From NCBI RefSeq assembly GCF_025526975.1, contig NW_026515673.1, positions 186,001 to 250,000 on the forward strand: a DNA stretch of 64,000 bases. Direction: 5' to 3'. This DNA comes from Fimicolochytrium jonesii (taxonomy: Eukaryota). This document shows, in pieces, positions 3,884-64,000 of the stretch. The position numbers and the translations under genes were made by a program. The first letter of the stretch is position 1; each line of letters begins with the position of its first letter. The notes beneath the pieces are model-generated. The model worked only from the letters and a program-made list of their open reading frames with translations. It ran no database searches and was not told where the DNA came from.

Positions 3884-3929
3884 GTTACCCAAGCTGAGAT
3901 TCGAACCGCCACCATCAGGGCTCATAACC

Positions 3930-12647: not shown

Positions 12648-13267
12648 TATTGAAACCTTAGCTGATATAGGTGTATCTGAGAGGTCACTAAGACTGGTTC
12701 GCCGATAACTGAGGGATGTAGCTGCCCGAAGGGCAGTGTTGTGATGTAGAAGACAGTACTGTGGCTAGAGTGGTGCGATAGAAAGCTGTGTATTGAAGAG
12801 GTTGAAGTGAAGAGACGGGATGGGCAACAGGTCTGCCTTTTATAGGAATCTGGGGCTTCTTTCTTGGGGATTTAGCTAGGTGCTGGGGTGTCCAAAGCAC
12901 CCTCTGAGATCCCCTCAGAACGCCCAAGGCGTCGCTGAGTGCCGCAGTTAAGGTTGGTAAGGTTTGTAAGGTTTTGCCAAGTCTGTGTAGCCTCATAGGT
13001 ACCTGCTGATGCCCCATGGGCGTCCGCCAAGTCCGCGGAAGGTGCTACAGGCTACCACAAGCGCAATTGAGCCCAATCTAGCTACTACAACCCGACCACA
13101 GCTCCATACGGGCACTACAGACCGCTATGAGCTCTAAGAACATCATGAAAGCGCAGTGCTGATGCCTGGATGTCTGGGAAACGGTCCAGACATCTTCAGA
13201 GCCTCCCAACACGCGTCCTAAGTCTTGCAGAGCCTTCTAAGTGCCGCATCTTGATGCTATCTCAATA
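12648..13267 (-). repeat. Copia-A LTR, third copy
   Basis: +4359 copy of 8289-8908. Confidence 0.9.
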
Positions 13268-16200: not shown

Positions 16201-17006
16201 TCGAGTTCTCCTTGCGCCTAGCTTCTTCATTCAGAAGTCTGGCCATCAAGAACTCCATGTCTAAGTGGTCCGCCGTGCTTTCGAGGCTCATGATGACTTG
16301 TTTGTAGCTGTTTGGCAAGCTGTATATCAAGGTAGTCATGATATCGTCTTCGGGTACTGGTGCGCCGATAGCCTTCAGCTGTTGTGCGAGCTGTCTGACT
16401 TTGTTGATGTGGTTTGTGATCGAGTCTGACTCGTTCATAGTAATGGTAAAAAGCTTTTGACATAGGAAGAGCTTGCTGGTGAGCCCTTTTCGTTCGTGCA
16501 CCTCAGCTAGCTTAGACCAGGCTTCCCAAGCCGTGTGAGCTGTATGCACGTGCATAAGCTGGGTGTCGTTCAGACTGACGCAGATGTATGCCAAAGCCCT
16601 CTCAGCCCCCTTTCCCTTCGATGGGTTTGCTGTAGCCATGTCTCCTTCGCCTTCAACATCACCATCATCCTAAACTTCCATAGATGGTAGTTATCCCCTG
16701 TGAACTTGTCCACCATAAGTTTCGAAGTCTCTGCGTCTCCAGCCATCGTGTGTTCGAGCTAAGTTTGTCTGTTTCGAGTGTGTGGACACGTTTCGGATAA
16801 TAGTGTATTGTTGGACAGGTTTTGGGTGTCAAGTAGTGCATATCTCGTTGAGTTGAGCACTTGAGCGCGTTTTTGGTCGAAAATTGGTGATTTTGGAAGG
16901 ATATATGGAGGATAGGGCATACGTAGCAACTGTAGGGGGTTGGGAACGTCTTGAATAGGATTTGCGAAGATGGTTTTAGTGATGATAAAGCTGAGGGCTC
17001 ATAACC

Positions 17007-17462
17007 TATTGAAACCTTAGCTGATATAGGTGTATCTGAGAGGTCACTAAGACTGGTTCGCCGATAACTGAGGGATGTAGCTGCCCGAAGGGCAGTGTTG
17101 TGATGTAGAAGACAGTACTGTGGCTAGAGTGGTGCGATAGAAAGCTGTGTATTGAAGAGGTTGAAGTGAAGCGACGGGATGGGCAACAGGTCTGCCTTTT
17201 ATAGGAATCTGGGGCTTCTTTCTTGGGGATTTAGCTAGGTGCTGGGGTGTCCAAAGCACCCTCTGAGATCCCCTCAGAACGCCCAAGGCGTCGCTGAGTG
17301 CCGCAGTTAAGGTTGGTAAGGTTTGTAAGGTTTTGCCAAGTCTGTGTAGCCTCACAGGTACCTGCTGATGTCCCATGGGGGTCTGCCAAATCCGCGGAAG
17401 GTGCTACAGACTGCCACAAGCTCAAGCAAGCCCAAGTGCCGCGTCTTGATGCTATCTCAATA
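17007..17462 (-). repeat. Copia-A LTR, fourth copy, with ~165-bp internal deletion
   Basis: Same termini; GCCCAA joins directly to GTGCCGC near 17435. Confidence 0.85.
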
Positions 17463-19603: not shown

Positions 19604-20525
19604 CTATATAAGATGCTGTGGGGGTGGCTGGCAGAAGCGAGGGTCTATCGAATGAGGGGCTATGGTCGGTTCTCGGGGAAAATAGGCTGCCGGTCTCAAT
19701 AGTACAAGAAGATTGCTCTTGTTAGAGCATCGTCTTGCCACCATAATATCCAGGTGCTTTGAATGGAGTCCTTGTTCTTGAAGGGGGTTGGGAGTATGAG
19801 TTTGGGTGCGAAAGATCGGGTCGGTAATATCCAACAAAGGTTGACTACAAAACAATACAACGGAGTTATTCAATACTACTCTCAGCTGTTCTTACTAGAT
19901 TCCTGATCAAGCAAGTCCTCTGCGACGTCAGCAAAGTACAAGCCACAAGACTTGGGGCCGTCTTGTCTAAGCTCTCAGTGTCTGTGAGCTTGCCTTGAAA
20001 AGTCCGAAAGGAACTTGAAAAAGTCGTCAGGAGTAGAGAAGTAGCTCTGTTGTGGGTTGGTGTGTTCTGCGTATCGTACAAAATTCAAGGCGAAACAGTC
20101 AGGCTTCTATACACATTTTTGTAGGCTACAGAATTTTGTCAAAGTCCAAACTCTCTACTATATGTCTCTAGAAGAATCAGCTACATCAAGGGATTCTCTT
20201 TTCCTGCAGCAGTCTACGTCGTTTTCGCCTTTTCCATTCGCAATTTCTACGCTGATACAGTCTTATCGCTAATCTTTTCTGTGGTTTTTCTTCAACGTTT
20301 GGCATATACGGCCACTGGAATTGGTTTTCTTGTTTCGCAGTTGATTTTTTCAGCGTTTCGGGCATTGTGAGAGCTTCCGGTTGGTTGAGAGTCACGTCTG
20401 GGGCGCTTTCATGTGTGAGATCTTTACCTACGCCTACATTTTTCTCATGTCAGTCGTATCCGAGGACAAAACATCGTTGTGAGGGCAGGTCTCGGTAAAG
20501 GCAGGTGTGTTAGGTTATTGTCAGA
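19604..20525 (-). repeat. Gypsy-B LTR fragment (partly duplicated at 25522-26325)
   Basis: Reverse-complement similarity to 47960-48912 (GCACCTGGATATTA, GTCCTCGG.TACGACTGACATG blocks). Confidence 0.8.
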
Positions 20526-20529
20526 GTGT

Positions 20530-21345
20530 CAGAAATGGGAGTATGTCAATTTATTTTTGAAGGTTTTGACAGTATTTGACGTTGTCCCAGGTCTTTGACA
20601 TTGCCCCAGTGCCGAAGCTGATTGCCCGACTGTAGCTCTGTCAATGGATACGCGATGTATGCATAACGATCGTCTTTCTGTATGGTAGGACGTGCAAAGT
20701 TTTGCACGGCCTCCAATTTTGAGGGTGCAATAGCCATTGTTCCTCTTCCAGGATATAGCCACAGAATTGAGCATCCATTTACGCTTGGACGGCTTAACAT
20801 AGAGTTTGTGCTCGGTGAGAACAGCCAAAACACTGTCCACATGAGCGATATGCTCCTCGGCAATCTCCGACAAGATTAAGATATCATCCAGGTAAGATAT
20901 GACATACATCATACATCTTCCCCAATATCTTATTGGGTAACCGTTGAAACGTTGCCAGTGCATTCGTTAATCCTATCGGCATAACCAAGTACTCAAAATG
21001 ATCAAACCGCGTCCAAAACGCTGTTTTGTCTATATCGCCCTTGCAAACCAAGAGGTGGTGATACGCATCTTTGATGTCCAACAAAGACTTGAACTTCCTT
21101 CCACATACCCGATCCTGCAGCTCTGCATGATTCGGTAACGGCGTACAATCCTTTATCATTGCTTTGTTCAGCCCACGATAGTCAACGCACATATGGAGAC
21201 TGCCATCGTTTGTCTTAGCAAGTAACACTGCGGCAACCCATGGGCTCTGCCAGTGCTGAACCCATCTGCGCTCAAGCATGAGAGTAACCTTCTCATTAAG
21301 CTCTTTGAGTTCAGCTTTGCTCATATGCCGTAAAGGATTAAAGTC
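20530..21345 (-). pseudogene. Gypsy-A RT fragment (copy 26330-27145)
   Basis: CVDYRGLNK, LDIKDAYH, VMPIGLTNA, YLDD; diverged paralogue of 31370-32180. Confidence 0.9.
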
Positions 21346-21349
21346 TAGT

Positions 21350-21872
21350 GTGTTGTTTACGAAGACCTCGGATGGTGTTTTGCTGACCAGAGGGGACGTT
21401 ATGGGAGTAACTGATCTCAGCTCCGGTGTTGGATAAACATACGGGATGGTGTAAGTTGTAGCGTGCTGAGGAGGTGCATGGGGGCCAGCGGCAGAGAAGT
21501 CACATATGGCGCACTAGCCGGTATAGGGCTAGCTGAGTAATTAGAGTGAGTGCTGTATACTGACGATTGGGTGAGCGGGTTTACTGAGTGGAACGTAGGT
21601 CCGCCTTGTTGAGGAGCTCGATCCTGATTCAAGAGGGAGGTAACCAAGCCTGGCAAATTGGCAATTAGGTCTTCTAGATGAAGAAACCTCTCTTCCTGCT
21701 TGATTGGAATCCATAGGAATGGGTTGATTTCGGTTTTGGGGGGTCCGGCGGTTTGGGCACATCCACATACAGGGTGATGGCATCCTTCAACTCTGCAATA
21801 GTCGGAGAAGACTCCTCCTTCCTCTTCCTTTTCATCCACAAATCCACCAGGCATTTCACGAAGACGGGTAGG
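21350..21872 (-). pseudogene. Copia-C-like gag fragment (copy 27150-27672)
   Basis: MPGGFVDEKEE...RAPQQGGPT..SVNPLTQS matches gag at 40130-40580. Confidence 0.8.
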
Positions 21873-22165
21873 TGTGATGTGGACTACCTTCCACACGGGT
21901 TGTTTAACTGATGTTCGTATACAATAACTACTTTGCTGTAAGGTATTGTAGACGGACTGGGTGTTCGTCGGCTCTGCTATGCGATATGTAGTAAAAGAAC
22001 TACTTGTTGTGCATAGGACCGCGCGACGAGCACTGTTAAAGTACCCGTGAGGTTGGAGTCCACTGGAGAACACTGTTTGGGACATGTCTCGCACACCTGG
22101 CAAGACATGTCTTGCTGACATGTCGTTCTCCAATAAGACCAGACACTCCACATTACACCCCCCCC
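21873..22165 (-). repeat. Gypsy-A 3' LTR (21873-22157, 285 bp) with G8 polypurine tract (copy 27673-27965)
   Basis: TGTAATGTG...CACATCACA termini preceded by GGGGGGGG on the minus strand. Confidence 0.88.
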
Positions 22166-22354
22166 AGATTCTACAACGCGAACCTGCCCAGCAAGCTCAA
22201 GCAGAGTAGAATATGAAGGTGTCCGGGATCGCACCCAGCGCAATCCTTAATGGTCCTTGTCGTCGTCGGTCCAAATAACCATGCAAAAAAGCTATGGCTT
22301 TTTGGCAGAAAGCCATGGCTTTTTCGCTGAAAGCCATGGTTCGCCAACTGGACG

Positions 22355-25300
22355 TGTAATGTGTGTTGGGTTGTCCGGTCTTATTGGAGAACGACATGTC
22401 AGTGAAAGACCTATCGCTGTCTTGGTGGAAGGCCTTCCGACCTGTCAGTGAAAGGCCTTTCGACCTGTCAGTGAAAGGCCTTTCGACCTGTCAGTGAAAG
22501 GCCTCTCCTAAGCACTCAGCCTTACGCCCTTCACGCTCAGACAGTGTTCTCCAGTGGACCCCGACCACATGGGTACTATAACAGTGCTTGTCGCGAGTTC
22601 CTATTCATAACAAGTAGTTCTCTTACTACATACCGATTTGCAGCGCTGGCGAACACCCAGTCCGTCTACAATACCTTACAGCAAAGTAATACGAACATCA
22701 GTTATACAACCCGTGTGGAAGGTAGTCCACATCACATGGTAGCACCACTCGTTTGAACAAAACAAGCTTCCTAGTAGTAAACACGTCGGCAACTTCAGCA
22801 TCTCGAAATTGCGGACGTAGCAATCGTCACAGAACGTCGATACAACACTTCTAGACGATTCAAATAGCCTTCAGGACGTCCAGGACAACGTCCGTCGCAA
22901 CTCCTAAGCTGTTAGGGTTCTTCTTGATCCTCTCAAAGAGCTCTCTAAACTGATAGCTTCAGATCCTGTCTAGGATCAATGTAGCCAAACCCCGCCGACA
23001 TCGGACAGATTTTGGGGATTTTTTGCTCAAAAGAGGGGAAATCTATGCCCAAATTTTGGTTACTGCACACGGCATATACCTGATTCAAGAACCTAGTTGT
23101 TTGTGTGTATTTGCTCGAGGTACTGAGCTATACAACATCAACGGAGTACTTCTGTCCGCATTCTGGACGTATTCGTCTTTGTTTGAGGTTATTCGACCTG
23201 AAAACGAGATTACACTGGCCAGAAGGTCGTCATGAGTAGGTCAACGGGTAGTACAGTTAACAGGAGTGAGGAAACTACTCCTGGAGGTACAGCTGTTATT
23301 ACTGAGATCGTTGCGAAGCCGGAAATGTCGGTTGACGAACCTTGTGTTGAAGTTTGCCTTCCTCGTCCTCCTCAAACGACGGGACCTGTTCCAATGGAGG
23401 GTATCCAGGTCGGTGGACCTCCTCCATCTCCTGCTGGTAACCCGCACGCTACGGCTATGTTGACGATCTCTGTCGAGGAGTTCAACGCCCGAATTAATGC
23501 TGCTCGAGCAGAAGTTCGCGATCAACATGCCGAGGAACATCAGGCTTGACAGGATCGTTTGCGATCTACGTTGGAGCGTGACTCCGCGGTGCGCCATGAT
23601 GTGCTGCAGGATGGGTCGGTGCATCTGTTCTATATCGAGCAGGGTAGACATCATGGTACATGGATCTCACAGCATCCGTTCAATGGCAAACGGCGTGAGG
23701 CCGCTTTCGTTGACACGTTTTTGCAGAAGCATACGGCCTTCATGGTTACTTTTGGTCTTCCGATTGACGACTTTACGTACATGCAGAAGGTCTTGAGCTC
23801 GCTTGAAGGCGACGCACGTACCTGGTTTGACACCGCATGCAGGCTTGACATGCGGAAAGAGGATTTTGAGACGGCTTTCAAACTAGCCTTCTATCCTACA
23901 AACGCGAAAACAAACGCGCTCAATGCTCTGCACCGTATGACTTTTCATAAGTCGATGGACTCATATGTGACGGAGTTCAAACGTATCATTGCCGAGGCAC
24001 AGCGCAACCTGGAGGTTATCACTCCTGACAATTTGAATAACCTGTTCCTTCGTGGTCTTACTCACAATAAGACCAATACCGTCGGCTATGAGATTGCCCA
24101 GTCGTTGTTGCATACGATGGTCGATTATAGGGAGCAACACCCTCTGCTCGCATTTCCATTGATTTGTTTGATGGATCGTGCGCTTAGTTCGTTTGCTGTA
24201 CGTCGCCTCGCCGATAAGGGCACCGACGCAAACGATAAAGCAGTTGCTTCTGGTAGTAGCGCCTAAACGTGCTAATGTCTCTTCTGCCACGGGTACCGCG
24301 GGCAAGAAGGGGGGGAAAGCTAAGAAGGCGGAAGCTGCTAAACCTTACGCACGCCCAGACCTCTCGCACATGAAGTGCTTCGATTGTGGCGAGATGGGTC
24401 ATCGTGCGCGAGATTGTCCTAAGAAGAAGGATAAGAAATCCGACGAGGCTAAGGATAAGCCGCATTGAGATGCTGGTCAGAAAAAGGGTTTTCAGTAGAG
24501 ACGTTTAATAAAGACACCGTTTATTTGTCTCATTGTGCAATGGTGTCCATTGAAGAGGAACTTGAGGCTATACGCCCTGAGTCCGCTGATGGTAGACTGG
24601 TTGATTGTAGCAATACGTCTGCTGCGGGGGCGCGCCTGTGCCGGCCAGACGAGACTGAAACCGTTTTGAAGACTAGGCCTGAAGCACTGCAACTGCAACC
24701 TGATGCGTTGATCGCACGATGTGCATTTGTAGTTCATGGCAAGTAGAATGGCAGGTTTTGTCGTATTCTGATCGATACGGGATGCACAACACTGATGGTA
24801 CGTCAGGGATGGGGTGTCAAAACATGGTTTCCAAACCTATAACCCTAAAATGCCCATTGATGTTGCCTGGGGCGACGACAGCCATACATTCAACCCCAAC
24901 AAGTCATTTTGTGGCGATCTACAGTTGTGGGGAGATGGACGACACTATTCCAGAGAACAGCTTCCATTTGTGGTCGCTCCTCTGCGGGTAGATGTTATTC
25001 TCGGATTGCCATGGATCTATATGCTTGACGATGTTTGTTTCGAGCACATAGAAGATGAAATTCCTGTTCTACGATTTCGTGCGGATGAAGTTGAACATAC
25101 CCTGGTTGCCAGACCAGTAACTAGGAAGTGGGAATCCCAGTCGTCCTGTAATGCGGCCGATCTGCGGTTTTTTGACATCAGAAAAAAGTCTAAACGATTC
25201 AAGGCGGTGATGCCTGAACGAGAAGACTCGAGTGTAGGAGTTGTAACTTATCAGAAGTTGACTCGCTTATCTCGAAAAAAGGTGTATGGGAAGTGTTACA

Positions 25301-25521
25301 TAGCGTTCGCTATGGACATAGAAGCTGCAGTGAATGCGTCACCAGCTTATGTCCCCGCAGATGAGCGCAATCGCGCCGAACCAGAGCCAGAGGTTCAAAT
25401 TAGCGAAGCTACGGGACAGAAGGTTGATTTGGGCGTGCCATTGGATCACCTTCTTTATCCAATGTTAGAGAAGTACATGGATAGTTTGTTTGTTGAGCAC
25501 GCAGAGTTGCCGCCCGATCGA
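22355..25521 (+). mobile_element. Gypsy-A 5' part: LTR 22355-22736, PBS, gag, protease; truncated by the duplication junction
   Basis: TG...CA LTR, PBS TGGTAGCACC at 22737, gag LEGDARTWF, knuckle CFDCGEMGHRARDC, protease ILIDTGC. Confidence 0.9.
22432..22504 (+). repeat. 23-bp tandem repeat (CCTTTCGACCTGTCAGTGAAAGG) x ~3 inside the LTR (copy 28232-28304)
   Basis: Read directly; absent from the 285-bp LTR variants. Confidence 0.85.
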
Positions 25522-28500
25522 TTAGAGCATCGTCTTGCCACCATAATATCCAGGTGCTTTGAATGGAGTCCTTGTTCTTGAAGGGGGTTGGGAGTATGAG
25601 TTTGGGTGCGAAAGATCGGGTCGGTAATATCCAACAAAGGTTGACTACAAAACAATACAACGGAGTTATTCAATACTACTCTCAGCTGTTCTTACTAGAT
25701 TCCTGATCAAGCAAGTCCTCTGCGACGTCAGCAAAGTACAAGCCACAAGACTTGGGGCCGTCTTGTCTAAGCTCTCAGTGTCTGTGAGCTTGCCTTGAAA
25801 AGTCCGAAAGGAACTTGAAAAAGTCGTCAGGAGTAGAGAAGTAGCTCTGTTGTGGGTTGGTGTGTTCTGCGTATCGTACAAAATTCAAGGCGAAACAGTC
25901 AGGCTTCTATACACATTTTTGTAGGCTACAGAATTTTGTCAAAGTCCAAACTCTCTACTATATGTCTCTAGAAGAATCAGCTACATCAAGGGATTCTCTT
26001 TTCCTGCAGCAGTCTACGTCGTTTTCGCCTTTTCCATTCGCAATTTCTACGCTGATACAGTCTTATCGCTAATCTTTTCTGTGGTTTTTCTTCAACGTTT
26101 GGCATATACGGCCACTGGAATTGGTTTTCTTGTTTCGCAGTTGATTTTTTCAGCGTTTCGGGCATTGTGAGAGCTTCCGGTTGGTTGAGAGTCACGTCTG
26201 GGGCGCTTTCATGTGTGAGATCTTTACCTACGCCTACATTTTTCTCATGTCAGTCGTATCCGAGGACAAAACATCGTTGTGAGGGCAGGTCTCGGTAAAG
26301 GCAGGTGTGTTAGGTTATTGTCAGAGTGTCAGAAATGGGAGTATGTCAATTTATTTTTGAAGGTTTTGACAGTATTTGACGTTGTCCCAGGTCTTTGACA
26401 TTGCCCCAGTGCCGAAGCTGATTGCCCGACTGTAGCTCTGTCAATGGATACGCGATGTATGCATAACGATCGTCTTTCTGTATGGTAGGACGTGCAAAGT
26501 TTTGCACGGCCTCCAATTTTGAGGGTGCAATAGCCATTGTTCCTCTTCCAGGATATAGCCACAGAATTGAGCATCCATTTACGCTTGGACGGCTTAACAT
26601 AGAGTTTGTGCTCGGTGAGAACAGCCAAAACACTGTCCACATGAGCGATATGCTCCTCGGCAATCTCCGACAAGATTAAGATATCATCCAGGTAAGATAT
26701 GACATACATCATACATCTTCCCCAATATCTTATTGGGTAACCGTTGAAACGTTGCCAGTGCATTCGTTAATCCTATCGGCATAACCAAGTACTCAAAATG
26801 ATCAAACCGCGTCCAAAACGCTGTTTTGTCTATATCGCCCTTGCAAACCAAGAGGTGGTGATACGCATCTTTGATGTCCAACAAAGACTTGAACTTCCTT
26901 CCACATACCCGATCCTGCAGCTCTGCATGATTCGGTAACGGCGTACAATCCTTTATCATTGCTTTGTTCAGCCCACGATAGTCAACGCACATATGGAGAC
27001 TGCCATCGTTTGTCTTAGCAAGTAACACTGCGGCAACCCATGGGCTCTGCCAGTGCTGAACCCATCTGCGCTCAAGCATGAGAGTAACCTTCTCATTAAG
27101 CTCTTTGAGTTCAGCTTTGCTCATATGCCGTAAAGGATTAAAGTCTAGTGTGTTGTTTACGAAGACCTCGGATGGTGTTTTGCTGACCAGAGGGGACGTT
27201 ATGGGAGTAACTGATCTCAGCTCCGGTGTTGGATAAACATACGGGATGGTGTAAGTTGTAGCGTGCTGAGGAGGTGCATGGGGGCCAGCGGCAGAGAAGT
27301 CACATATGGCGCACTAGCCGGTATAGGGCTAGCTGAGTAATTAGAGTGAGTGCTGTATACTGACGATTGGGTGAGCGGGTTTACTGAGTGGAACGTAGGT
27401 CCGCCTTGTTGAGGAGCTCGATCCTGATTCAAGAGGGAGGTAACCAAGCCTGGCAAATTGGCAATTAGGTCTTCTAGATGAAGAAACCTCTCTTCCTGCT
27501 TGATTGGAATCCATAGGAATGGGTTGATTTCGGTTTTGGGGGGTCCGGCGGTTTGGGCACATCCACATACAGGGTGATGGCATCCTTCAACTCTGCAATA
27601 GTCGGAGAAGACTCCTCCTTCCTCTTCCTTTTCATCCACAAATCCACCAGGCATTTCACGAAGACGGGTAGGTGTGATGTGGACTACCTTCCACACGGGT
27701 TGTTTAACTGATGTTCGTATACAATAACTACTTTGCTGTAAGGTATTGTAGACGGACTGGGTGTTCGTCGGCTCTGCTATGCGATATGTAGTAAAAGAAC
27801 TACTTGTTGTGCATAGGACCGCGCGACGAGCACTGTTAAAGTACCCGTGAGGTTGGAGTCCACTGGAGAACACTGTTTGGGACATGTCTCGCACACCTGG
27901 CAAGACATGTCTTGCTGACATGTCGTTCTCCAATAAGACCAGACACTCCACATTACACCCCCCCCAGATTCTACAACGCGAACCTGCCCAGCAAGCTCAA
28001 GCAGAGTAGAATATGAAGGTGTCCGGGATCGCACCCAGCGCAATCCTTAATGGTCCTTGTCGTCGTCGGTCCAAATAACCATGCAAAAAAGCTATGGCTT
28101 TTTGGCAGAAAGCCATGGCTTTTTCGCTGAAAGCCATGGTTCGCCAACTGGACGTGTAATGTGTGTTGGGTTGTCCGGTCTTATTGGAGAACGACATGTC
28201 AGTGAAAGACCTATCGCTGTCTTGGTGGAAGGCCTTCCGACCTGTCAGTGAAAGGCCTTTCGACCTGTCAGTGAAAGGCCTTTCGACCTGTCAGTGAAAG
28301 GCCTCTCCTAAGCACTCAGCCTTACGCCCTTCACGCTCAGACAGTGTTCTCCAGTGGACCCCGACCACATGGGTACTATAACAGTGCTTGTCGCGAGTTC
28401 CTATTCATAACAAGTAGTTCTCTTACTACATACCGATTTGCAGCGCTGGCGAACACCCAGTCCGTCTACAATACCTTACAGCAAAGTAATACGAACATCA

Positions 28501-31500
28501 GTTATACAACCCGTGTGGAAGGTAGTCCACATCACATGGTAGCACCACTCGTTTGAACAAAACAAGCTTCCTAGTAGTAAACACGTCGGCAACTTCAGCA
28601 TCTCGAAATTGCGGACGTAGCAATCGTCACAGAACGTCGATACAACACTTCTAGACGATTCAAATAGCCTTCAGGACGTCCAGGACAACGTCCGTCGCAA
28701 CTCCTAAGCTGTTAGGGTTCTTCTTGATCCTCTCAAAGAGCTCTCTAAACTGATAGCTTCAGATCCTGTCTAGGATCAATGTAGCCAAACCCCGCCGACA
28801 TCGGACAGATTTTGGGGATTTTTTGCTCAAAAGAGGGGAAATCTATGCCCAAATTTTGGTTACTGCACACGGCATATACCTGATTCAAGAACCTAGTTGT
28901 TTGTGTGTATTTGCTCGAGGTACTGAGCTATACAACATCAACGGAGTACTTCTGTCCGCATTCTGGACGTATTCGTCTTTGTTTGAGGTTATTCGACCTG
29001 AAAACGAGATTACACTGGCCAGAAGGTCGTCATGAGTAGGTCAACGGGTAGTACAGTTAACAGGAGTGAGGAAACTACTCCTGGAGGTACAGCTGTTATT
29101 ACTGAGATCGTTGCGAAGCCGGAAATGTCGGTTGACGAACCTTGTGTTGAAGTTTGCCTTCCTCGTCCTCCTCAAACGACGGGACCTGTTCCAATGGAGG
29201 GTATCCAGGTCGGTGGACCTCCTCCATCTCCTGCTGGTAACCCGCACGCTACGGCTATGTTGACGATCTCTGTCGAGGAGTTCAACGCCCGAATTAATGC
29301 TGCTCGAGCAGAAGTTCGCGATCAACATGCCGAGGAACATCAGGCTTGACAGGATCGTTTGCGATCTACGTTGGAGCGTGACTCCGCGGTGCGCCATGAT
29401 GTGCTGCAGGATGGGTCGGTGCATCTGTTCTATATCGAGCAGGGTAGACATCATGGTACATGGATCTCACAGCATCCGTTCAATGGCAAACGGCGTGAGG
29501 CCGCTTTCGTTGACACGTTTTTGCAGAAGCATACGGCCTTCATGGTTACTTTTGGTCTTCCGATTGACGACTTTACGTACATGCAGAAGGTCTTGAGCTC
29601 GCTTGAAGGCGACGCACGTACCTGGTTTGACACCGCATGCAGGCTTGACATGCGGAAAGAGGATTTTGAGACGGCTTTCAAACTAGCCTTCTATCCTACA
29701 AACGCGAAAACAAACGCGCTCAATGCTCTGCACCGTATGACTTTTCATAAGTCGATGGACTCATATGTGACGGAGTTCAAACGTATCATTGCCGAGGCAC
29801 AGCGCAACCTGGAGGTTATCACTCCTGACAATTTGAATAACCTGTTCCTTCGTGGTCTTACTCACAATAAGACCAATACCGTCGGCTATGAGATTGCCCA
29901 GTCGTTGTTGCATACGATGGTCGATTATAGGGAGCAACACCCTCTGCTCGCATTTCCATTGATTTGTTTGATGGATCGTGCGCTTAGTTCGTTTGCTGTA
30001 CGTCGCCTCGCCGATAAGGGCACCGACGCAAACGATAAAGCAGTTGCTTCTGGTAGTAGCGCCTAAACGTGCTAATGTCTCTTCTGCCACGGGTACCGCG
30101 GGCAAGAAGGGGGGGAAAGCTAAGAAGGCGGAAGCTGCTAAACCTTACGCACGCCCAGACCTCTCGCACATGAAGTGCTTCGATTGTGGCGAGATGGGTC
30201 ATCGTGCGCGAGATTGTCCTAAGAAGAAGGATAAGAAATCCGACGAGGCTAAGGATAAGCCGCGTTGAGATGCTGGTCAGAAAAAGGGTTTTCAGTAGAG
30301 ACGTTTAATAAAGACACCGTTTATTTGTCTCATTGTGCAATGGTGTCCATTGAAGAGGAACTTGAGGCTATACGCCCTGAGTCCGCTGATGGTAGACTGG
30401 TTGATTGTAGCAATACGTCTGCTGCGGGGGCGCGCCTGTGCCGGCCAGACGAGACTGAAACCGTTTTGAAGACTAGGCCTGAAGCACTGCAACTGCAACC
30501 TGATGCGTTGATCGCACGATGTGCATTTGTAGTTCATGGCAAGTAGAATGGCAGGTTTTGTCGTATTCTGATCGATACGGGATGCACAACACTGATGGTA
30601 CGTCAGGGATGGGGTGTCAAAACATGGTTTCCAAACCTATAACCCTAAAATGCCCATTGATGTTGCCTGGGGCGACGACAGCCATACATTCAACCCCAAC
30701 AAGTCATTTTGTGGCGATCTACAGTTGTGGGGAGATGGACGACACTATTCCAGAGAACAGCTTCCATTTGTGGTCGCTCCTCTGCGGGTAGATGTTATTC
30801 TCGGATTGCCATGGATCTATATGCTTGACGATGTTTGTTTCGAGCACATAGAAGATGAAATTCCTGTTCTACGATTTCGTGCGGATGAAGTTGAACATAC
30901 CCTGGTTGCCAGACCAGTAACTAGGAAGTGGGAATCCCAGTCGTCCTGTAATGCGGCCGATCTGCGGTTTTTTGACATCAGAAAAAAGTCTAAACGATTC
31001 AAGGCGGTGATGCCTGAACGAGAAGACTCGAGTGTAGGAGTTGTAACTTATCAGAAGTTGACTCGCTTATCTCGAAAAAAGGTGTATGGGAAGTGTTACA
31101 TAGCGTTCGCTATGGACATAGAAGCTGCAGTGAATGCGTCACCAGCTTATGTCCCCGCAGATGAGCGCAATCGCGCCGAACCAGAGCCAGAGGTTCAAAT
31201 TAGCGAAGCTACGGGACAGAAGGTTGATTTGGGCGTGCCATTGGATCACCTTCTTTATCCAATGTTAGAGAAGTACATGGATAGTTTGTTTGTTGAGCAC
31301 GCAGAGTTGCCGCCCGATCGAAGTGAAGATAACTTCCATATCGAACTGGAGCCTGGTACGAAACCAGTCTTTAATCCTTTACGGCATATGAGCAAAGCCG
31401 AACTCAAAGAGCTGAATGAGAAGGTTACCTCTCATGCTCGAGCGCGGTTGGATTCAACACTCGCAGAGCCCGTGGGGCGCGGCAGTGTTATTCGCCAAGA

Positions 31501-34698: not shown

Positions 34699-34945
34699 AC
34701 TTAGCAGTAGTCGGCGGAGGAAGCAGATGACTGAGCGAACTCTATGTAGTGTGCAATGCTGTACTGTGAAGTATGTATTGTCTTGTGTAGAAAAGTCTAA
34801 AGTGTAAAGAGGACGCGAGGTCTGAAGGGGAAGAAACGAGTGAAGTCCCGTACGCAGAAGCGTGGCAAAAGCGGGAGGGGAGTCACGTGAGGAAATAAAC
34901 TATGGGAACTCTAACCGGGGACTTGGGAGGATGATACCCCCAACA
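34699..34945 (-). repeat. Copia-C 3' LTR
   Basis: Direct repeat of 40935-41181 (roughly 19 mismatches by eye); adjacent PPT. Confidence 0.92.
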
Positions 34946-35209
34946 CCCCCACTCAAACTCACGAGTCTATCTAAGTGAAAGATAGATCGAAACAATGAGT
35001 ACAATGGTGCGGCCGTACGCGAAAAACGGGCGGACGTTGGGTGAATAGCTATGACTAAAAATGAAAGAAATGAAAGAGTAAAATGAAAGAAGGGGGGAAA
35101 CGCCGCGAGTATAAAACAAGAGACAGCTGTCAGTTGCCCTAGAGAGGTAAGACCAACGTTCCCCATACTCAACTACCGTATCCCAGACTACCACACGATA
35201 CGCAAAACA

Positions 35210-35845
35210 ATGGCCAACGGAGGCAAGAACGGCGGGAGTGGCAAGAAGAAGCAAATGGCCCGTAAGACGGTGAGACCAGCAGCCCCTCCAGCTGCACCTC
35301 CTCCGGGACCCTCACGACCGACAACGCGCTCTACGCGTGCATCGTCCGCAGCGTCCGCAAGCGACTCTTCGATGTCGAAAGCCCGAGTTAGAGAAGCTCT
35401 TCGATTGGCGACGGAGGTATCGAAGTTGAGGTACCGCAAGGATAACCATGAGAACCTCGCGAAGCACCTGGCGTTTATGAAGGCGAAACTGGATCGATCG
35501 AAGCGAAAGAAGGGGTCGTTCGAAGCATTGACGGAGGAGGCAGACTACCTTGGATGTAAGGCAGTCTCGGAGTCGCGATATAAGGCAAAAGGCGGCATAT
35601 CAAAAGAAAAGATGAAAGATGCAAAGCGCCGCAGTGATGCGGTCAAGAGACGGGAGCGAGACAAGATGATGAAGCGACTCCAGTACTTGCGAAAGCACAT
35701 GGATGATTCGTCTTCAAGTGAGGATGGAGACGGGGACGGAAATGGCGGGGGAGGTGGTCCAGGGGGTCCGCCTGGTGGAGGCGAAGCCGGAGCCGGTGGA
35801 GGCCCCGGTGCCAGGGCAGCGGCAGCTATCAAGGTGGCGGGTTAA
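35210..35845 (+). CDS. Antisense accessory ORF of copia-C, 211 aa, basic, H3-tail-like KQMARKT motif
   Basis: Uninterrupted ATG-TAA ORF between pol stop and PPT; start context AAAACAATGG; TATAAAA at ~35110. Confidence 0.7.
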   Translation: MANGGKNGGSGKKKQMARKTVRPAAPPAAPPPGPSRPTTRSTRASSAASASDSSMSKARVREALRLATEVSKLRYRKDNHENLAKHLAFMKAKLDRSKRKKGSFEALTEEADYLGCKAVSESRYKAKGGISKEKMKDAKRRSDAVKRRERDKMMKRLQYLRKHMDDSSSSEDGDGDGNGGGGGPGGPPGGGEAGAGGGPGARAAAAIKVAG

Positions 35846-35937: not shown

Positions 35938-38900
35938 CTAGCGACACGTCCTTCTTGAATTGCTTGAATGTGTCTCGGGAGGAAAGGGCTTCGTAAAGTA
36001 ATCAGCCAGTTGTTCCTGCCTCGCGGTGTTGGGGAGTACGACGTCTTTCTTCGCCACGCCATCGCGTAGCTTGTGGTAGCGTACGTCGATGTGTTTGGAG
36101 CGTTGCGGAATAGCCGAGTTGGCAATCTCGCGGGCGCTCTGATTGTCGATGTGGAGTGGCGTAGGGTCCTTGATGTTGCCGTATTCGTCGGCGAAGACCT
36201 CTGCGGTGATCGAGCGGAGCCGGATGACCTCGTTGTAACCGAGCGGTGTGGCAATATACTCAGCTTCCGTGGAGCTGAGAGCTACGCACTTCTGCTTGGT
36301 GCTTTTCCAGTAGATAAGCTGGCCGTTGAAGAAGCTGGCGATGCCCGTGGTAGATTTGCGGTCGTTGACATCGTCTGCGTAGGATGCGTCGGTATAGACG
36401 CGAAGTCCAGCTTGATCTGAATGACCGGACTTGTAGGTAAGCTCGAAGGTGCGGGTACCTTTCAGGTAGCGCATGATGCGAAGTACATCATTCCAGTTGG
36501 CTTGGGTAGGAGCTGAGACTTGACGTGCGACGAAGCCGACGGCAGTTGAAATATCCCAGCGCCAGGTAATGGATGCCCACGTGAGGGCCCCCACTGCTTC
36601 CTGGTAGACAAGCTCGCTATGAAAAGGGGGGCTTGCGGAGGCTGGTCGGGTACGCGCAGAGACGGCGCACGGCGTAGAGACCGCGGTAGCGTTTTGTTGT
36701 CCAAATCGTTCGAGTAAACCGTCAATATAGGTAACATTGCTGATTTTGAGTTGGTTCCCTGACGGCGAGAGCTGGTAATCGAAGAACAGACCTAGGCAGT
36801 TCTTGATGGGACTGAGATCCGTACAGTTGAAATGAGAACATAGTTCACCTTTCACTTGCTTGACGTGTACGGGAAAGCAGCAGGCGATGAAATGGTCCAC
36901 ATAGATAAGGAGCATCTGGAGAGCGTCCAGAGTGCGCGTCGTTGTCGCGTAGCGATAGAAGACGCAAGGGCAGTTCTTTAACGGGGTAAAGCCAAGAGAA
37001 CTGAGGGTTTCACAAAGAGTACGGTACCAGAGAAGCGGAGATTGCTTCAGACCGTATAGAGCTTTGCGTAGGAGGTATACCCAGTCTGCGCGCGGTTTCT
37101 GCGGATCTTTGTAGCCTTGAAATTGCTCAACATAGACGGGTCCGTCGATATCGCTGCGTAAGAACGCGTTGGGGACGTCAAGTTGATGGATTTCCATACC
37201 AAGAGAGACGGCAATGGAGAGGAATAGGCGAAGAACTGACATGGGTAGGGTTGGTGCGTAGGTGTTGTTATAATCAATACTCTTGGATTGACGAAAACCT
37301 TGAACTACACGGTGGCCCTTGAATTTCTTGAAAGTACCGTCCGGATTGAAGATTTGACGAAGTACCCAAGTACTACCGAGTACGCGCTGATTTTGCGGAC
37401 GGGGTACGAGCTCCCAAGTTCCGTTATCAACTAGAGCTTGGAACTCTTTATCAGCTGCGAGCTTGAAGTCAGCTGTTTGAGGGGAGGCCATTGCTTGTCG
37501 CCAGGTCATAGTGACGGATTGAGGAGTGTCTTTGGTACGCGTGTTGAAGGCGTTTGAGAGGGCATCAATAGTTCGGGCGTTGAAAGCGTCTGGACGAGAC
37601 TCCCAGATATCCAATGCTTCAGTCTCAATGAGATCAGAGCGTGGTTGCCAGGTAGGGGTAGTAAAACCAACCCACTTGACGAGGTATTCCTTTTGGACGT
37701 TCTTGCTGCGGCGTTGACGTTCAGAAAGGATGTGTTCGATAGGGAACTCCTCTTGCGAGGTGGGAGCATCTTTCAGAAGATCTAGGAGAGCAGGATCTTG
37801 ACGAAGGTGCTCAGGGAGTCCAGTAGATTTGTCGAAGCGAACATCACGTGAGACGGCGACAGTGTCGCGAACTGGATCCCAGACATAGTAACCTTTGGTG
37901 CCTTGTTGGTGACCATAGCCCACTAGGTACATCTTGGTAGCACGATTTGCCATCTTTTCCCGGCCCTTGGGTGGAACAACAGTGTGCGTGAGACATCCGA
38001 GCTTGCGCAGATGCGCGATGCTCGGGCGGCGACCGGTAAGGAATTCGGAGCGCGATTTGGCATCCGAGGATGCAACTGAATGCGGGTAGAGGTTGTGCAG
38101 GTAAGAGACAGCCTCCAGGATGTACAGCCAGAGCTTGCGGGGAAGGTGAGTGTCTGGGAAGATGGTGCGTACGCGGTCCAGCAACGTCCGATTGAGGCGC
38201 TCTGCTTTTCCGTTTTGTTGACTAGAATACGCAACAGTAGACTCATGGGTCATCCCATTGTTGTGTAGGTACAACGTGAGCGCGCCAGTGTATTCTCCTC
38301 CGCTATCCGTATGTAGGATCTTGAGGGAGACGCCAGTTTGATTCTTGAGCCACTTATGAAAGATCATAAACCTTGCGGTAATAGTGGATGCCTCCTTGTC
38401 CTTGATGGAGTAGGTACGGGCGAAATCGGAGCCGTTGTCCAGAAACGCGAGACTGTAGCGCTCTCCGTTGATGCCGTAGATCCGAAATGGACCTTGTAAA
38501 TCGCTGTGAATCAGCTCGCCGGGTTTGTGTGGCGGGGATGTCGATTTAGGGAAGGTGAGGCGGGTAGCTTTGCCGAGAGCGCATGGATCGCAGCGTGCGC
38601 CGGAGTCCGGCGTAGCCCCCACTGAAGGCCAATCCTCTACTATCTTAGGCATAACCGGGAGAATGTGGTTTCCAGGGTGTCCAAGACGTTGATGCAGAAG
38701 TTGGGGGGTTATGGAAGCGACCAGTGCATGTGCATTGGGCTTGTAGGTAGTAACCCGTCCTTCTAAACAGTACGCGTCGCCTTTGCGGATCACCATCATG
38801 AGTAGGTGTCGGTCGGTATTGAACGTGACGACGTCGGTGGGGTGAAAGGAGACGGTAACGCCGTTATCAGTGCATTCAGCAACAGATATAAGCGGCTGGG

Positions 38901-39335
38901 CAGCACTGGGAACCAATACAACATCGCAAAGAGCGAGAACGTTGCCGCCGGACGTAGGTTGGATAAGTACGGTACCCTTCTTTTGAGAGGTAATGGTAGT
39001 CGAATCCACGAGTCCAATAAGGCGTTGGTAGTCTTGAAGAGAAGATGGATCTAGATCCTCAATATAGGGGGTCATATGATCCGTACAACCGGAATCCACG
39101 TTCGCCTTGAAGAGGCGGACGTCGTGGTTGGCTGGTTGGACTTGAACGTGCATGGCATAAGCCATGGAGGCTGCAGCGGGTGCGTCCTGCTTGGTTTTCA
39201 TGTTCTTGTCCATGATATCCTTGACAGCTTTGTAAGTAATGCAGTTTTCCGACTTGTGGCCGTCCCTCTGGCAGTATTTGCACTGGGGAGGCTTCTTGGT
39301 TGCGTCAGAAGACGAGCTTGGGTAGAGGGAGTGCC
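35938..39335 (-). CDS. Copia-C pol: Zn knuckle, protease, integrase, chromodomain, RT, RNase H
   Basis: CKYCQRDGHKSENC in frame upstream of the 1091-aa ORF; VDSGCTDHMT; HQRLGHP; HSDLQGP, HTDSGGEY, QNGKAERLNR; EYLVKWVGF; ALYGLKQSP; YVDH (mutated YVDD); YTDASY, SSTEAEY, SKHIDVRYH. Confidence 0.93.
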
Positions 39336-40845
39336 TCTAGAGCCGCCAGTCTTGGATTTGTTCTTCCTCTTCTGAGGTAGAGTAGAAGTAACGTGGGGAG
39401 CGGATGCGCCCGACTGAGGTGTACTCGGGGTCTTCTCGTTGAGCTGGGCGGCTATACAAATCGCGGCTTCTTGAGAAGGACTAAGTCTATCGTCGTACTG
39501 AGCCTGAGCAGTGATCAGGGTACTAAGATTCTTAGGAAGGGCTTGAAGAAAATCGGCACAGAGCACGTATTCCGGGAACCCGGGGAGTTGTCCAGCCAAA
39601 AGGTTGAAGTGGGCGACAAATTCGGTTAAACCTTGATGGTTAATTGACTTGGGCTTCAGAGCGCGCAGTCTGTGAAGAACTTGCGGCAGATTAGTCCCGG
39701 GAATGAAGCGCCTCAACATCGCGGAGCGTAATCCGAGTCGCGGGGGCAGTCCATAGACGTCTTGAATATCATGCCAGGAAATTATGGAGGAGCGCTCGTT
39801 TTCAGGAAGGCTTTTCCACCACTGGAGAGCTGGTCCAGTGAGCGCGTTGATAACGAAGTCTACGCATTCGGAAGGCGAAATCATCTCGTACTTCATAATC
39901 ACGTCAATGTGATCTAGGAACCCTTGAAGCTTGATAACATTGGGGTCGCCTTTGTAGGTGCCGAGTTTACTAAGGATAGTGTTGATGAAGACCTTGGAAG
40001 CTGATTTGCCGGCCGTAGGGGGTGTTACGGGAGTAACAGATCTCACAGATGCACTTTCGTGTGGAATTTTAGCGAAAGGAGGGCTTTGAGAACGAGGTTG
40101 AAAGTAAGGATGTCGTTCCGGGGCTTTGTAAGCGTATGGGACGGAGTAGGCCATAGCGCGCTGACGGGGCGCATGGGGTGCCGGCGACACAGAGGTCATG
40201 TATGGCATGTTTGCCTGGATAGGGCTAGTCGAATAATGAGAACGAGTGCTGTTCACAGGCGACTGAGTGAGCGGGTTCACGGAGGGGACAGTAGGTCCGC
40301 CCTGTTGAGGCGCTCGGCCCAAATTCAAGAACGAGGTAACCAATCCAGTCAGAGTGGCTGTTTGATCCTTCATTTGACGCATCTCCTCTTCCTGCTTGAC
40401 AGGTGTAGGTTCTCGCTGAATGGAATCCATCAGGAAGGGGTCGGTTCCGGTATGTCCGCGTGATTCAGGCGCATCCACATATGGTGTGGTTGCGTCTTTC
40501 CATTCTGCAATAGTAGCAGAGAGATCCTCTTTCCTCTTCTTGATCCACAAATTCACCAGGCATTTTGTAAGGCGGGGTAGGTGTTGGTTCACTGCGTAAG
40601 TCGGCATGACGGGCTACGCCTTGATTAAGCGGAGTACGTGAGTCAATGCCAGAGCGCTGATTAATAGATTCAGAACTCTTAACAGGGGGTTGTTGAACGT
40701 TCTTTCCTCCTCCTCTAGTAGCCGCAGGTAGTGGACCCAGGAGAGCTCCTCCTTGGGACCGCGTGTGGTGAGCGGAGGGCTTGCCGGCTGTCACTGCAGC
40801 TGCGTAGCCCTTCTGAGGTTGGGTTGTTGAATCCTTAGGTGGCAT
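39290..40845 (-). CDS. Copia-C gag, frameshifted near 40480 and near 39320
   Basis: ORFs 40465..40845 and 39198..40607; capsid-like LTGPALQWW and FLQALPKNL. Confidence 0.75.
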
Positions 40846-40934
40846 GGTGCTTTCTAAGAGAGCGGTGACTGGAGACCGTGAGTTCTTTATCCTGGAACGT
40901 CCGCTAGTTGCGGGCGGAGCCAGGGCTCATAACC

Positions 40935-41181
40935 ACTTAGCAGTAGTCGGCAGAGGAAGCAGATGACTGAGCAAACTCTATGTTGTGTGAGATGTAGTAC
41001 TGTGAAGAATGTATTGTCCTGTGTAGAAAAGTCTAAAGTGTAAAGAGGACGCGAGGTCCGAAGGGGAAGAAAAGAGTGAAGTCCCGTACGCGGAAGCGTG
41101 GCGTAAGCGGGAGGGGAGTCACGTGAGGAAATAAACTACGGGAAACCTAACCGGGGACTCGGGAGGATGATACCTCCAACA
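40935..41181 (-). repeat. Copia-C 5' LTR
   Basis: Followed by the PBS on the minus strand. Confidence 0.92.
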
Positions 41182-51310: not shown

Positions 51311-51910
51311 GTAGGTGATGGTTCACTTCGTTGTTGCACTTGACGGGGTACGCCTTGAATAGGCGGAGTACGTGAGTCAGTGCCAGAGAGCCAATTAGAA
51401 GATTCAGAGCTCCTAAGAGCTGGTTGAACTTTTTTTCCTCCTCCTCTGGTTGCTGGCGGTAGTGAGTCCAGGAGTGCTCTCCCTTGGGAGCGCATATTTG
51501 GGGTAGACGGCTTGCCGGCTGCTAAGGCAGCAGAGCATGCTTTCTGAGTTTGGTTTGTTGAATCCTTTGGCTGCATGGTGCTTTCTGAAAGAACCGGCGA
51601 GGGGACACCGAGCTCTCCATTCTAGATTCGTACGCAAATAGCAGGCGAAGCCAGGGCTCATAACCTGTTAGCGGTAGTTGGCAAAGGAATATGGATAGAG
51701 AACGGAACCTGTGTATGGGGGACGAAGCCCTATATTGTATGAAGTTATACAGTCTTGTCTGAAGACAGAAAGGAGGACGCGAGGTCCAGGGTAGTAAGAA
51801 AAGGGAGAAGTCATGTACCCAGAAGCATGGCGTAAGCGGGAGTGAAGTCACGTGAGGAAATAAACAATGGGAACGCTAACCGGGGACTCGGGAGGATGAT
51901 ACCTCCAACA
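51311..51910 (-). mobile_element. Copia-C relative: 5' LTR 51666-51910, PBS, gag start
   Basis: TGTTGGAGG...CTAACA LTR, GGTTATGAGCCCT, MQPKDSTNQTQK versus MPPKDSTTQPQK at 40845. Confidence 0.88.
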
Positions 51911-52851: not shown

Positions 52852-54952
52852 TCATTTGCCAGAAGCAATCACGAAGTCAACCCAATCTTTCCACCTCCGG
52901 TCCCACACAATTTTCGCCGTTCGCTGCTCCGCACGAGTCAGGCCCGAGAAGGTGATTCCGTTGAGGGAAAGTTGCTTCAATGAGCGAAGATCAAGCGACT
53001 CGAATGCCATGTACACCTGGTAGTAGTCCGGCGTCACACCTTCATAGCCTAGGTTGATAAAGTGACGATTTCCATTACATCTTTCATGTGCTTATGAAGC
53101 ACTTTGTAGGCAAGGCCGCGGCGCTCATGTACTTACCATAGAGCATAGGATCGTCCGGAGCCAACGTCACTTGTACACCGCTTAGTAGCAGGTCAATGAC
53201 TGGATGCTCTCGCAAATCCTTGACGTAGCCCAACATTTGGTTGCTAAGGAAAACTGGTCAGTAAGCCTGCTCGCCGATCTTCCGATCTTCGGACCGTGGC
53301 CTTGAGTTGAGAATAAAAAAGGTGTGTCGTTACCTAATCGGGGCGACTTCGACTGCTATATTCTGGTCGATGACGCGCTTGATGAGACCGGGGTGTCGGG
53401 ACAAAGCAATACCGTGCCCGATGCGTTTTGTTCCGAGAAGCAACGCATCAACAAGATTCGCATCTGGCGCGGGCCCACAGCGTTGAGTCTCGCCGGCATG
53501 CAGGACAAGGGGAAGTGAGACGCCCGCCCGTTTGGCGGTGCGCTGGCCTTGTACGAGGGTTTGAAGCACTTCGTCCAGCGAACGAGTCTGGTAGAGAGAA
53601 GAGGTTGATTTCACCCCACAAGCGACAGGTCGCGGCGACCGACCCCGTTGATTCGCCGCTTCACATAACAATACGTTTCTAGACTTACCACTTCATGTCC
53701 AACCAAATCGAGCGCGACGATTTGATCAGGGTGGGATTTGCGATATTGAATCGCTTCGCCTATGGATGCAGCAATCACGCTATTGTCCAGCGATCGGACC
53801 TCTTGCCACACAAACCTTAAATCCTGAAAGTCGGGGTGGGTCTGCTTGAACTTTGCGACGATTCGGCGTACGCTGCGCAGCACAGCCGAGAATGGCTTGG
53901 TGTCACCGTTTGCAAGGTACGTTTCCCATTTGAACATGCGGATCTCGACCTGGGCATTGAGATGGGTTAGAGTGGGCAGGAGTCGAGCGGTGCGGAGTTA
54001 CGTACATAAAGTATGCCGTCTTCATAGAACTGCTGAATCAGTCGCCCTATGTATGCTTCGAACATGGGGTCATAGCGGAGAATGGACCCTAGCATCTCAA
54101 ACGACATGAGGAATTGGGCCCACGCAGCATCGTCGTTCTTGAATATGCTAGGGACGAAAGATTACCTTCCATATCAGCGCTATTCTCGAAACTCGTAAAC
54201 TTACTCCCGAATAACACTATTTTGAAGCTCCAAATGACTGTCATAGGCGTTGGCGCCACCGGGAAAAGCATCACGAACTTCTTTGCATGTTGCCCATCCC
54301 TCATCTGGGGGCAACCCTGAGGATGAACTGGCGAACTTGAAGAAAGCGAACTTCTCTTTCCTTGCCACCGCTTGATCAAATGTTGGGACCGTTTTCTCCT
54401 CATATCTATGGATATACCGAATGAGCAATGAATAGCAGACAGCAGAAGCGCCCAAATCGATGCGCTTTCGATATGTTACCTCACGAAGCAGGTGCTTCCG
54501 TGCTCTCCTTCCACCGTGGTGTTTATCAACCACTTCATGTCAACCATCGCCTCCAAATGCCCATGTAAGATCCCGCCTTTTGGCATTTGCCTTAGCAGCG
54601 TGTAGAGTTCGGATTCCTCCATCAATGGCTTGGCGACGGGGAACCGCAGGTGAGGGGGAAACGTGCCTGAGACCTGGAACGCGAGGGACTCCGTTGAACG
54701 GATTCTGGCCAGAACTTCATCCGCTTTTTGCTCCTTCTCCGACAATATGATACTTCGATCAAAGCGTGTTTCCAGATCCAGCGAGGAGAGCGTGCTGCGG
54801 GACGAGGACTCCACAGAGTCCACAATGTTGGCAATTGACCGGGTTGTCAGCAATGGCCAAATGAAGTATAGGGCAACAGCGGCAGCCACACTCTTTTCCC
54901 ACGGGCTCCACCGCGCGGGCGAGCGGTATATCCGCGCCCATTGGGTTGCCAT
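52852..54952 (-). CDS. ADA2: Adenosine deaminase, ADA2/CECR1/ADGF subfamily, multi-exon
   Basis: MPKGGILHGH, DGILY|VEIR, DLVGHE, LHAGET, NLVDALLLGTKRIGHG, EVAPISNQ, PDDP across GT-AG introns; N-terminal hydrophobic segment. Confidence 0.92.
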
Positions 54953-55171
54953 TATGGAAGGTAGGAAGGTAGGGAGGTAAGCAAGGGGGGCAAAGCGAAA
55001 TTCTGGCGGGGGCGTGAACAGAGCCTTGACAGCTTTTTTCCAGTTTTTGCTGTTTTGTGGTGTCACGCCGTCGGACTCGGATGAACGCGTCGAAATGTTG
55101 TCGAAACGTTGTCAGACGTCCTCGCATTTCAGCAACCCTCACACACATCAAGCGCGGAAACTGTCCACGCC

Positions 55172-63500: not shown

Positions 63501-64000
63501 ACCCTGCGCGACGCGGGCAAGGTTCCTGCCGCCGTTGATCTGTTACGCAAATCATCCAACTTGTTCGATCAGATTGACCTGCTTCATTACATCTATTCCT
63601 GCCATGGATTGGGGTATGACATCTCAGGACTAGGGACCGTCTCCACACTCCTTGAGGAAGTCTATCTCAAAGCGATGCATCTGCGACAATGGAGTATCGT
63701 GCGACAAGCTGCCGGACTTCTAAAGAAGATGGTCAACTCTCTGACGATCAATCTTTCTGACCTACTCATCCGTCAACGCCCGGTAACAATTGGATACGGA
63801 AGCGAGGAGATGTTCATCACATCGCCAATGTCGCCGGCGGCTTTAAAGGAGAGCATTTACAAACACTGTGCAAGCGATGTACGGGAGGCCCCTCTTGTAC
63901 AAGAAATCCTAACGTATCTGGGCTCCTTCATCCGTGGCACACCTGACATGTTCGAAGGTATCATGCGTGTACGGACCCACTTCTTCATCATCGCGATCCG
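60525..64000 (+). CDS. PHKB: Phosphorylase kinase regulatory subunit (alpha/beta family, GH15-like), 3'-partial
   Basis: [89 protein letters not shown]. Alpha versus beta assignment is uncertain. Confidence 0.88.

Follow-up and report, generated by a model that had tools for sequence, protein, structure and literature searches.

According to PMC6317226, the chromodomain marks gypsy chromoviruses with high reliability and is reported only in these; none was present in 5410 copia elements, mostly from plants. The stated exception is the diatom CoDi-A (CoDi-I) group of Ty1/copia elements, for which Llorens et al. 2009 (PMC2774666) reported putative integrase chromodomains, none being known at that time in other copia elements. 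CoDi-I was given as the copia case again by Ustyantsev et al. 2017 (PMC5348765). The chromodomain passages of two fungal surveys (PMC3248453 and PMC5445492) mention no copia case, and CoDi-A was the only copia chromodomain case found in the open-access papers covered for this lineage. These sources agree with the initial annotation of the locus, which had called integrase chromodomains uncommon in copia without naming the CoDi-A precedent. With regard to function, the MAGGY chromodomain is reported to bind H3K9me2/3 and to redirect Tf1 insertions (PMC4600332, PMC3350952), and the activity of the Tf1 integrase is reportedly modulated by its own chromodomain (PMC3350952). Classical (group I) chromodomains are marked by aromatic residues at HP1 positions Y24, W45, and Y48 together with a chromo-box motif, and their TWE motif is described as extremely conserved among the chromodomains of retrotransposons (PMC3350952).

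The window, that is, the whole stretch of 64,000 nucleotides analysed here, harbors on its minus strand an LTR element of 6.48 kb, measured between the outer ends of two 247-bp LTRs. The 5' LTR (40935..41181) begins with TGTT and ends with AAGT, hence with GT and not CA, and the 3' LTR (34699..34945) also ends with AAGT; the pair is 92.3% identical, with 19 differences. The primer binding site (PBS) GGTTATGAGCCC (40923..40934, minus strand) lies directly after the 5' LTR, as in an older copy of this family, and presumably is of the half-initiator-Met-tRNA type. The same 12-mer is present in the oligonucleotide list of an initiator-tRNA paper, and half-tRNA priming is described as confined to copia lineages (PMC6317226). 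A G-rich polypurine tract, GAGTGGGGG (34946..34954, minus strand), directly precedes the 3' LTR, so that LTRs, PBS, and polypurine tract are all present.

Two minus-strand frames lie between the LTRs. The gag frame (39198..40613), 471 aa from stop to stop, contains a Ty3/gypsy-like capsid domain according to Pfam and to a lineage Gag profile. The stop-free pol frame (35938..39336) of 1132 aa comprises a CCHC knuckle (CKYCQRDGHKSENC, at 39282), protease, integrase, SH3, chromodomain, RT, and RNase H. Pfam placed Pol_BBD at residues 80-159, rve at 270-371, SH3 at 434-505, and RVT_2 at 638-890 (E 1e-43), which reads as protease, integrase zinc finger and core, SH3, Chromo, and RVT_2. The protease DSG and the integrase D, D, and E motifs are present, and the RNase H motif YTDAS occurs at residue 981. 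The element has the Ty1/copia order PR-IN-RT-RNase H with an RVT_2-type RT. Between pol and the 3' LTR, an antisense open frame (35087..35845, plus strand; ATG at 35210, 252 codons) encodes a basic, low-complexity, lysine/arginine-rich product with Pro and Gly tracts, for which we found no Pfam match above the cut-off and no convincing match among the collected proteins.

The chromodomain is encoded at 37597..37752 on the minus strand (residues 529-580 of the pol frame), in frame between SRDVRFD (37851-37831), on the integrase SH3 side, and TWRQAM (37506-37489), at the start of the copia RT. Its position between the integrase SH3 and the RVT_2 RT bears out the copia pol context given in the initial annotation, and the Pfam Chromo search proposed there as a check returned a match. 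The isolated 80-aa piece scored 25.9 bits (E 9e-6), above the cut-off of 25.1, and the whole polyprotein scored 21.3 bits (E 2.6e-4), below it. Using phmmer against PDB sequences, 58 sequences were retrieved at E<=1, nearly all of them chromodomains, with CBX8 (6e-5), CDY1, CDYL, and Chp1 at the top. The AlphaFold2 model of the domain comprises three strands and a C-terminal helix (pLDDT 82-92). Chromodomains also lead the Foldseek results for this model, with an rmsd of 1.5-2.4 A over 50-56 columns; the best E was 0.008, and no row reached E<=0.001. The ESM Atlas lent weak support, with Chromo clusters at 0.94-0.95 and a recognition value slightly below the bar of the tool. As a control for chance, a chromodomain profile of 39 relatives, built with the window sequence left out, gave 66.9 bits on the real linker of the focal element, compared with 12.2 bits for the best of 2000 shuffles (1861 scored at all) and 2.1 bits for the best of 272 collected proteins without the domain.

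The aromatic cage is complete, as had been claimed from the sequence at the outset. F531 (37746-37744), W555 (37674-37672), and F558 (37665-37663) align to HP1 cage positions Y24, W45, and Y48, and the chromo-box motif reads YLVKWVG. A phenylalanine in the first cage position would still allow binding, since one of the structures listed by Foldseek is, from its title, an HP1 Y24F variant with a bound trimethyl-lysine peptide. Two departures had escaped the initial annotation. The TWE motif is replaced by TWQ in this copy; of the 36 relatives whose sequence spans this site, 34 have the glutamate. The loop lacks two residues relative to HP1-type domains, a feature common to 11 of 37 rows, the nearest relatives included. 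Taken together, these results confirm that the segment is a genuine classical chromodomain.

For the search of relatives, the SH3-chromodomain-RT stretch was submitted to a HMMER scan of 1.84 billion representatives. From the 150 matches listed, 24 carried a chromodomain in the copia SH3-to-RT linker. Two proteins from the scan had E below 1e-48 and were 45-47% identical over the whole query stretch. A profile search added 15 further full-length polyproteins with a linker chromodomain among the 120 matches listed. The closest relatives among the matches listed were 45-56% identical to the focal element. As a result, at least 39 non-redundant relatives from public collections harbor the chromodomain at the same place as the focal element, a count that leaves out two cluster mates (duplicates) and five multi-chromodomain proteins and that, as the query included the chromodomain, speaks for existence and conservation and not for frequency. 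These relatives surfaced only in the full HMMER scan and the profile search; a first single-sequence homolog search yielded 46 proteins of ordinary copia type, and no precomputed Chromo domain was assigned to any of them. The five multi-chromodomain proteins (P0058, P0064, P0114, P0155, and P0192) each consist of four to seven chromodomains in tandem, whose cages look intact, and lack any retroelement domain. In P0058, the loop is short in the same way as in the focal domain.

Pfam Chromo independently recognized 22 of the 24 relatives from the HMMER scan (E<=0.05); the two missing cases were P0053, where the domain is out of frame, and P0142, where it is degenerate. The full aromatic cage was found in 35 of the 39 relatives, with Y/W/Y as the consensus. 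In one of the four remaining cases, the reading frame is lost past the first strand; the other three (P0121, P0102, and P0142) cover all three positions and have lost the cage. The cage tryptophan is kept in all 38 rows that cover it. Because the cage is retained at a lineage identity of about 30-55%, where the linker flanking the chromodomain diverges freely, these alignments point to selection on the pocket. The CCHC knuckle was present in 23 of the 26 long lineage rows. In a scan of metagenome DNA, none of 17 loci was a copia element with a chromodomain; three were gypsy-context chromodomains (45-62 bits with the lineage profile), two were other chromodomain loci, and twelve had no domain match. 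A gypsy-context chromodomain (L001:1254-1427) has the same short loop and a C-terminal helix similar to those of the nearest relatives of the focal element, and may serve as a lead for a chromovirus donor.

The Gag of the focal element matched Pfam Retrotrans_gag (32.5 bits) and Ty3_capsid (32 bits) and not a copia Gag family, and the lineage Gag profile gave it 49.5 bits. Among the relatives with a scorable Gag, 24 of 25 were Ty3/gypsy-like by sequence profile. In the profile search, Retrotrans_gag was found in all 15 chromodomain proteins (11 of them also with Ty3_capsid) and in none of the 105 others among the 120 matches listed; in the HMMER scan, nine of the ten relatives with a scorable Gag were Ty3-like. 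The exception, P0158, is a chromodomain copia polyprotein with an ordinary copia-type Gag that stands apart on the tree, and is possibly a further independent chromodomain capture. Confronted against the PDB, the lineage Gag profile retrieved the Ty3 capsid 6r22 (E 6e-13) with no Copia capsid in the best 60 rows, and a profile built as a control from 24 ordinary copia proteins retrieved the Copia capsid 8vvw (E 1e-45) with no Ty3 capsid in the best 60 rows. The Gag of the lineage was thus shown to be Ty3-like at the sequence level.

Other comparisons of Gag were less specific. The lineage Gag profile does not tell gypsy Gags from ordinary copia, with scores of 13-16 bits for the gypsy Gags of the window and of 13.6-14.2 bits for the best among the ordinary copia proteins, and P0020, an ordinary copia protein from the single-sequence search, also matched Retrotrans_gag. 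The model of the focal capsid (pLDDT 89.7) has the retroelement capsid fold; in structure comparison, it matched PEG10 (Z 12.5), the Copia capsid (11.2), a Ty1-type capsid (10.0), and dArc1 (9.6), values that do not separate the types, and Foldseek returned nothing at E<=0.001. Submitted alone against PDB sequences, P0002 retrieved no capsid, and P0201 retrieved PEG10 weakly (E 0.02). A Gag-only search for a gypsy donor, with P0243 as the query, returned only P0243 itself.

For the phylogeny, a quick IQ-TREE run was performed on 676 columns of IN, RT, and RNase H, with the chromodomain columns excluded. The 73 rows comprised 31 with a chromodomain and 42 others, of which 11 were hand-picked RT-tree neighbours and the rest were distance-sampled from 135 full-length sequences. 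The focal element grouped with P0049, P0056, and P0059 (SH-aLRT 98), inside a group of 14 rows that all have the chromodomain (SH-aLRT 98). A second all-chromodomain group, of 16 rows (SH-aLRT 99), stood apart, and P0158 stood alone; with these groups, the tree needs three chromodomain changes. When the 30 chromodomain rows were forced together, the log-likelihood was 5.7 higher and p-AU was 0.54, and a single origin of these 30 rows is therefore allowed by the alignment. In an RT-only FastTree of 233 rows, the 27 with the domain were scattered into seven groups, several of them weakly supported.

The surroundings of the focal copy are crowded with transposable elements (TEs). From about 1.5 to 52 kb, the window consists of nested LTR elements, a TE cluster of roughly 50 kb, followed by host genes. 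An older copy of the focal family retains a 5' LTR ending AACA, the PBS, and the gag start (51311..51910, minus strand; 75% identity to the focal element over 617 bp), and its gag continues at 27234..27672 on the minus strand (71% identity over 466 bp). This gag is split by a gypsy element with LTRs at 51310-51026 and 27957-27673 and with the 5-bp sequence CCTAC cleanly duplicated at its two borders; the focal copy is nested inside the 23.6-kb span of that gypsy element. Through a 5800-bp tandem duplication, the gag continuation is repeated at about 21434-21872. Tandem units of TE fragments occupy 3917-17435 (4359 bp, about three copies) and 19722-31321 (5800 bp, two copies), and the pairs of units compared were more than 99.9% identical, which reflects either duplication in the very recent past or an error of the assembly. 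Another copia element, at 1557-3065, gave only SH3 and RVT_2 with Pfam. The lineage chromodomain profile, run on all six frames of the window, gave a single match, the focal domain, in line with the initial statement that the other copia pol lacks a chromodomain. Beside the TE cluster lies an adenosine-deaminase-like host gene (54476-55111, minus strand), and a phosphorylase-kinase-regulatory-subunit-like host gene (PDB E 3.5e-39) occupies 61417-64000 on the plus strand. The host is a eukaryote, and from the resemblance of an ORF at about 58972-59709 to a cilia-assembly protein, we would guess at a zoosporic (chytrid-like) fungus.

The focal copy itself is decayed and is predicted to be unable to transpose on its own. 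Its gag and pol do not share a frame; the relatives have a single frame across the junction. A programmed gag-pol frameshift was considered and rejected, as neither a slippery heptamer nor a Ty1-type site was found at the junction and the relatives are single-frame. Its RT motif is YVDH, compared with YVDD or FVDD in 21 of the 27 lineage rows in which this pattern could be located. TG...CA ends and a target-site duplication mark an intact insertion; here, both LTRs end with AAGT, and the flanks do not repeat, so no target-site duplication was detected. This combination of frame break, YVDH, LTRs that are 92% alike and end with GT, and absent target-site duplication is why the copy looks dead. 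Neither this decay nor the Ty3-like Gag of the family had been noticed in the initial annotation. The flanks appear to come from two different gypsy elements, and the GT ends and missing duplication could reflect aberrant integration or recombination between the LTRs of two insertions.

With regard to the role of the domain in the lineage, we regard it as probable that the chromodomain stays on the mature integrase and binds methylated H3K9 and that new copies consequently land in heterochromatin. In this mechanism, the protease would cut just after the chromodomain, which would then ride on the integrase; the cage would bind methylated H3K9; and the bound chromodomain would tether the integration complex to heterochromatin, by analogy with MAGGY. 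An A[FYLM] motif, similar to the ones that precede protease and integrase in P0001 and P0055, occurs within 14 residues after the chromodomain in 21 of 35 rows and before it in 3 of 33 (background 19%), the pattern having been picked post hoc from the alignment. Several full-length relatives lack this cleavage-like motif ahead of IN. The TWQ in place of TWE and the shorter loop of the focal copy were also counted against the targeting reading. The location of the copy, which the initial annotation had taken as consistent with heterochromatin-targeted integration, is indeed within a TE cluster, and fits such targeting but proves nothing; it does not discriminate, because copia elements that lack a chromodomain are found in this cluster as well.

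Heterochromatin targeting is not the only known role of such domains, since the Tf1 chromodomain modulates its integrase, and the chromodomain of this lineage might instead be functional without being aimed at H3K9me. It would then tune the integrase, as reported for Tf1 (PMC3350952), or read another methyl-lysine (H3K27me or a non-histone one) or nucleic acid. Matches to Polycomb-type CBX proteins as good as those to HP1 and Chp1, together with the short loop of the nearest relatives, speak for this family of roles, which we consider rather unlikely overall; within it, the binding of nucleic acid sits poorly with the full cage of 35/39 relatives and with a mostly acidic net charge (six of the seven domains counted), both of which fit a reader of histone tails better. 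Less likely again is that the chromodomain is a passenger, captured once and without a role, and that the clustering in TE islands arises from selection against genic insertions only. The three cage losses and the presence in the same island of other copia elements without the domain would suit a passenger, but a tryptophan kept in 38/38 rows and a full cage in 35, at about 30-55% identity and beside a linker free to diverge, would not be expected of one.

A private accident, in which local recombination would have placed a piece of a chromovirus or an entire gypsy gag in an ordinary copia element, was suggested by the gypsy neighbours, the absent target-site duplication, and the mismatched flanks of the focal copy. 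This explanation is refuted by the 39 relatives with the same domain at the same site, and we give it next to no credence. The possibility of a private insertion in this copy, raised at the outset as an outcome that would count against the annotation, fails for the same reason. Additionally, when the focal capsid was compared with the 319 collected proteins, all 12 other matches belonged to the chromodomain lineage (one being a Gag-only cluster mate), and the window holds no other chromodomain.

Copia chromodomains were already known from CoDi-A; what appears to be new here, from profile comparisons, is the Ty3-like Gag in this chromodomain copia lineage. We tentatively suggest, as a reading that we hold to be less likely than not, that the relatives represent one ancient, widespread, and undescribed 'chromo-copia' lineage apart from CoDi-A, which would combine copia enzymes and priming with a Gag and a heterochromatin-reading chromodomain that both derive from a Ty3/gypsy chromovirus. 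If that were true, it would be a natural cross-superfamily hybrid in microbial eukaryotes. A second sizeable copia lineage with an intact HP1-type cage would represent another adoption of a heterochromatin reader by LTR elements, and it allows a direct test of whether a chromodomain redirects a copia integrase as it does in gypsy. The pairing of chromodomain and Ty3-like Gag (15/15 against 0/105 among the matches listed) raises the prospect of module exchange between LTR superfamilies. Furthermore, classifiers based on Gag or on the chromodomain may misfile chromodomain copia elements.

Among the described systems, CoDi-A shares with the focal element, as far as the published description goes, the copia domain order and a chromodomain at the integrase C-terminus. 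However, all seven CoDi-A rows were scored without a CCHC array (PMC2774666, supplement 3), whereas the focal element has a knuckle, and the CoDi-A hosts are diatoms, whereas the host of the focal element shows no diatom sign. Like the chromoviruses MAGGY and Tcn1, the focal element has an integrase C-terminal group I chromodomain with a three-residue aromatic cage and a Gag that scores with Retrotrans_gag and Ty3_capsid. It differs from them in that it does not follow the RT-RNase H-IN order with RVT_1: its integrase precedes the RT, the RT is RVT_2, the SH3 is of the copia type and not SH3_Tf2-1, and the PBS is likely of the half-tRNA type. The element is of copia order, with a chromovirus-like integrase in a copia frame, and is not a chromovirus. 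The CopiaMBD elements of arthropods are likewise reported as a copia family with a captured chromatin reader proposed to guide insertion (de Mendoza et al. 2019, PMC6673714); however, that reader is a methyl-CpG-binding domain whose binding was shown there, whereas binding by the chromodomain of the focal lineage is predicted. Finally, Chronos of oomycetes is described as having acquired an integrase chromodomain independently of the chromoviruses, although it belongs to the Ty3/gypsy superfamily and carries an extra RNase H (PMC5348765).
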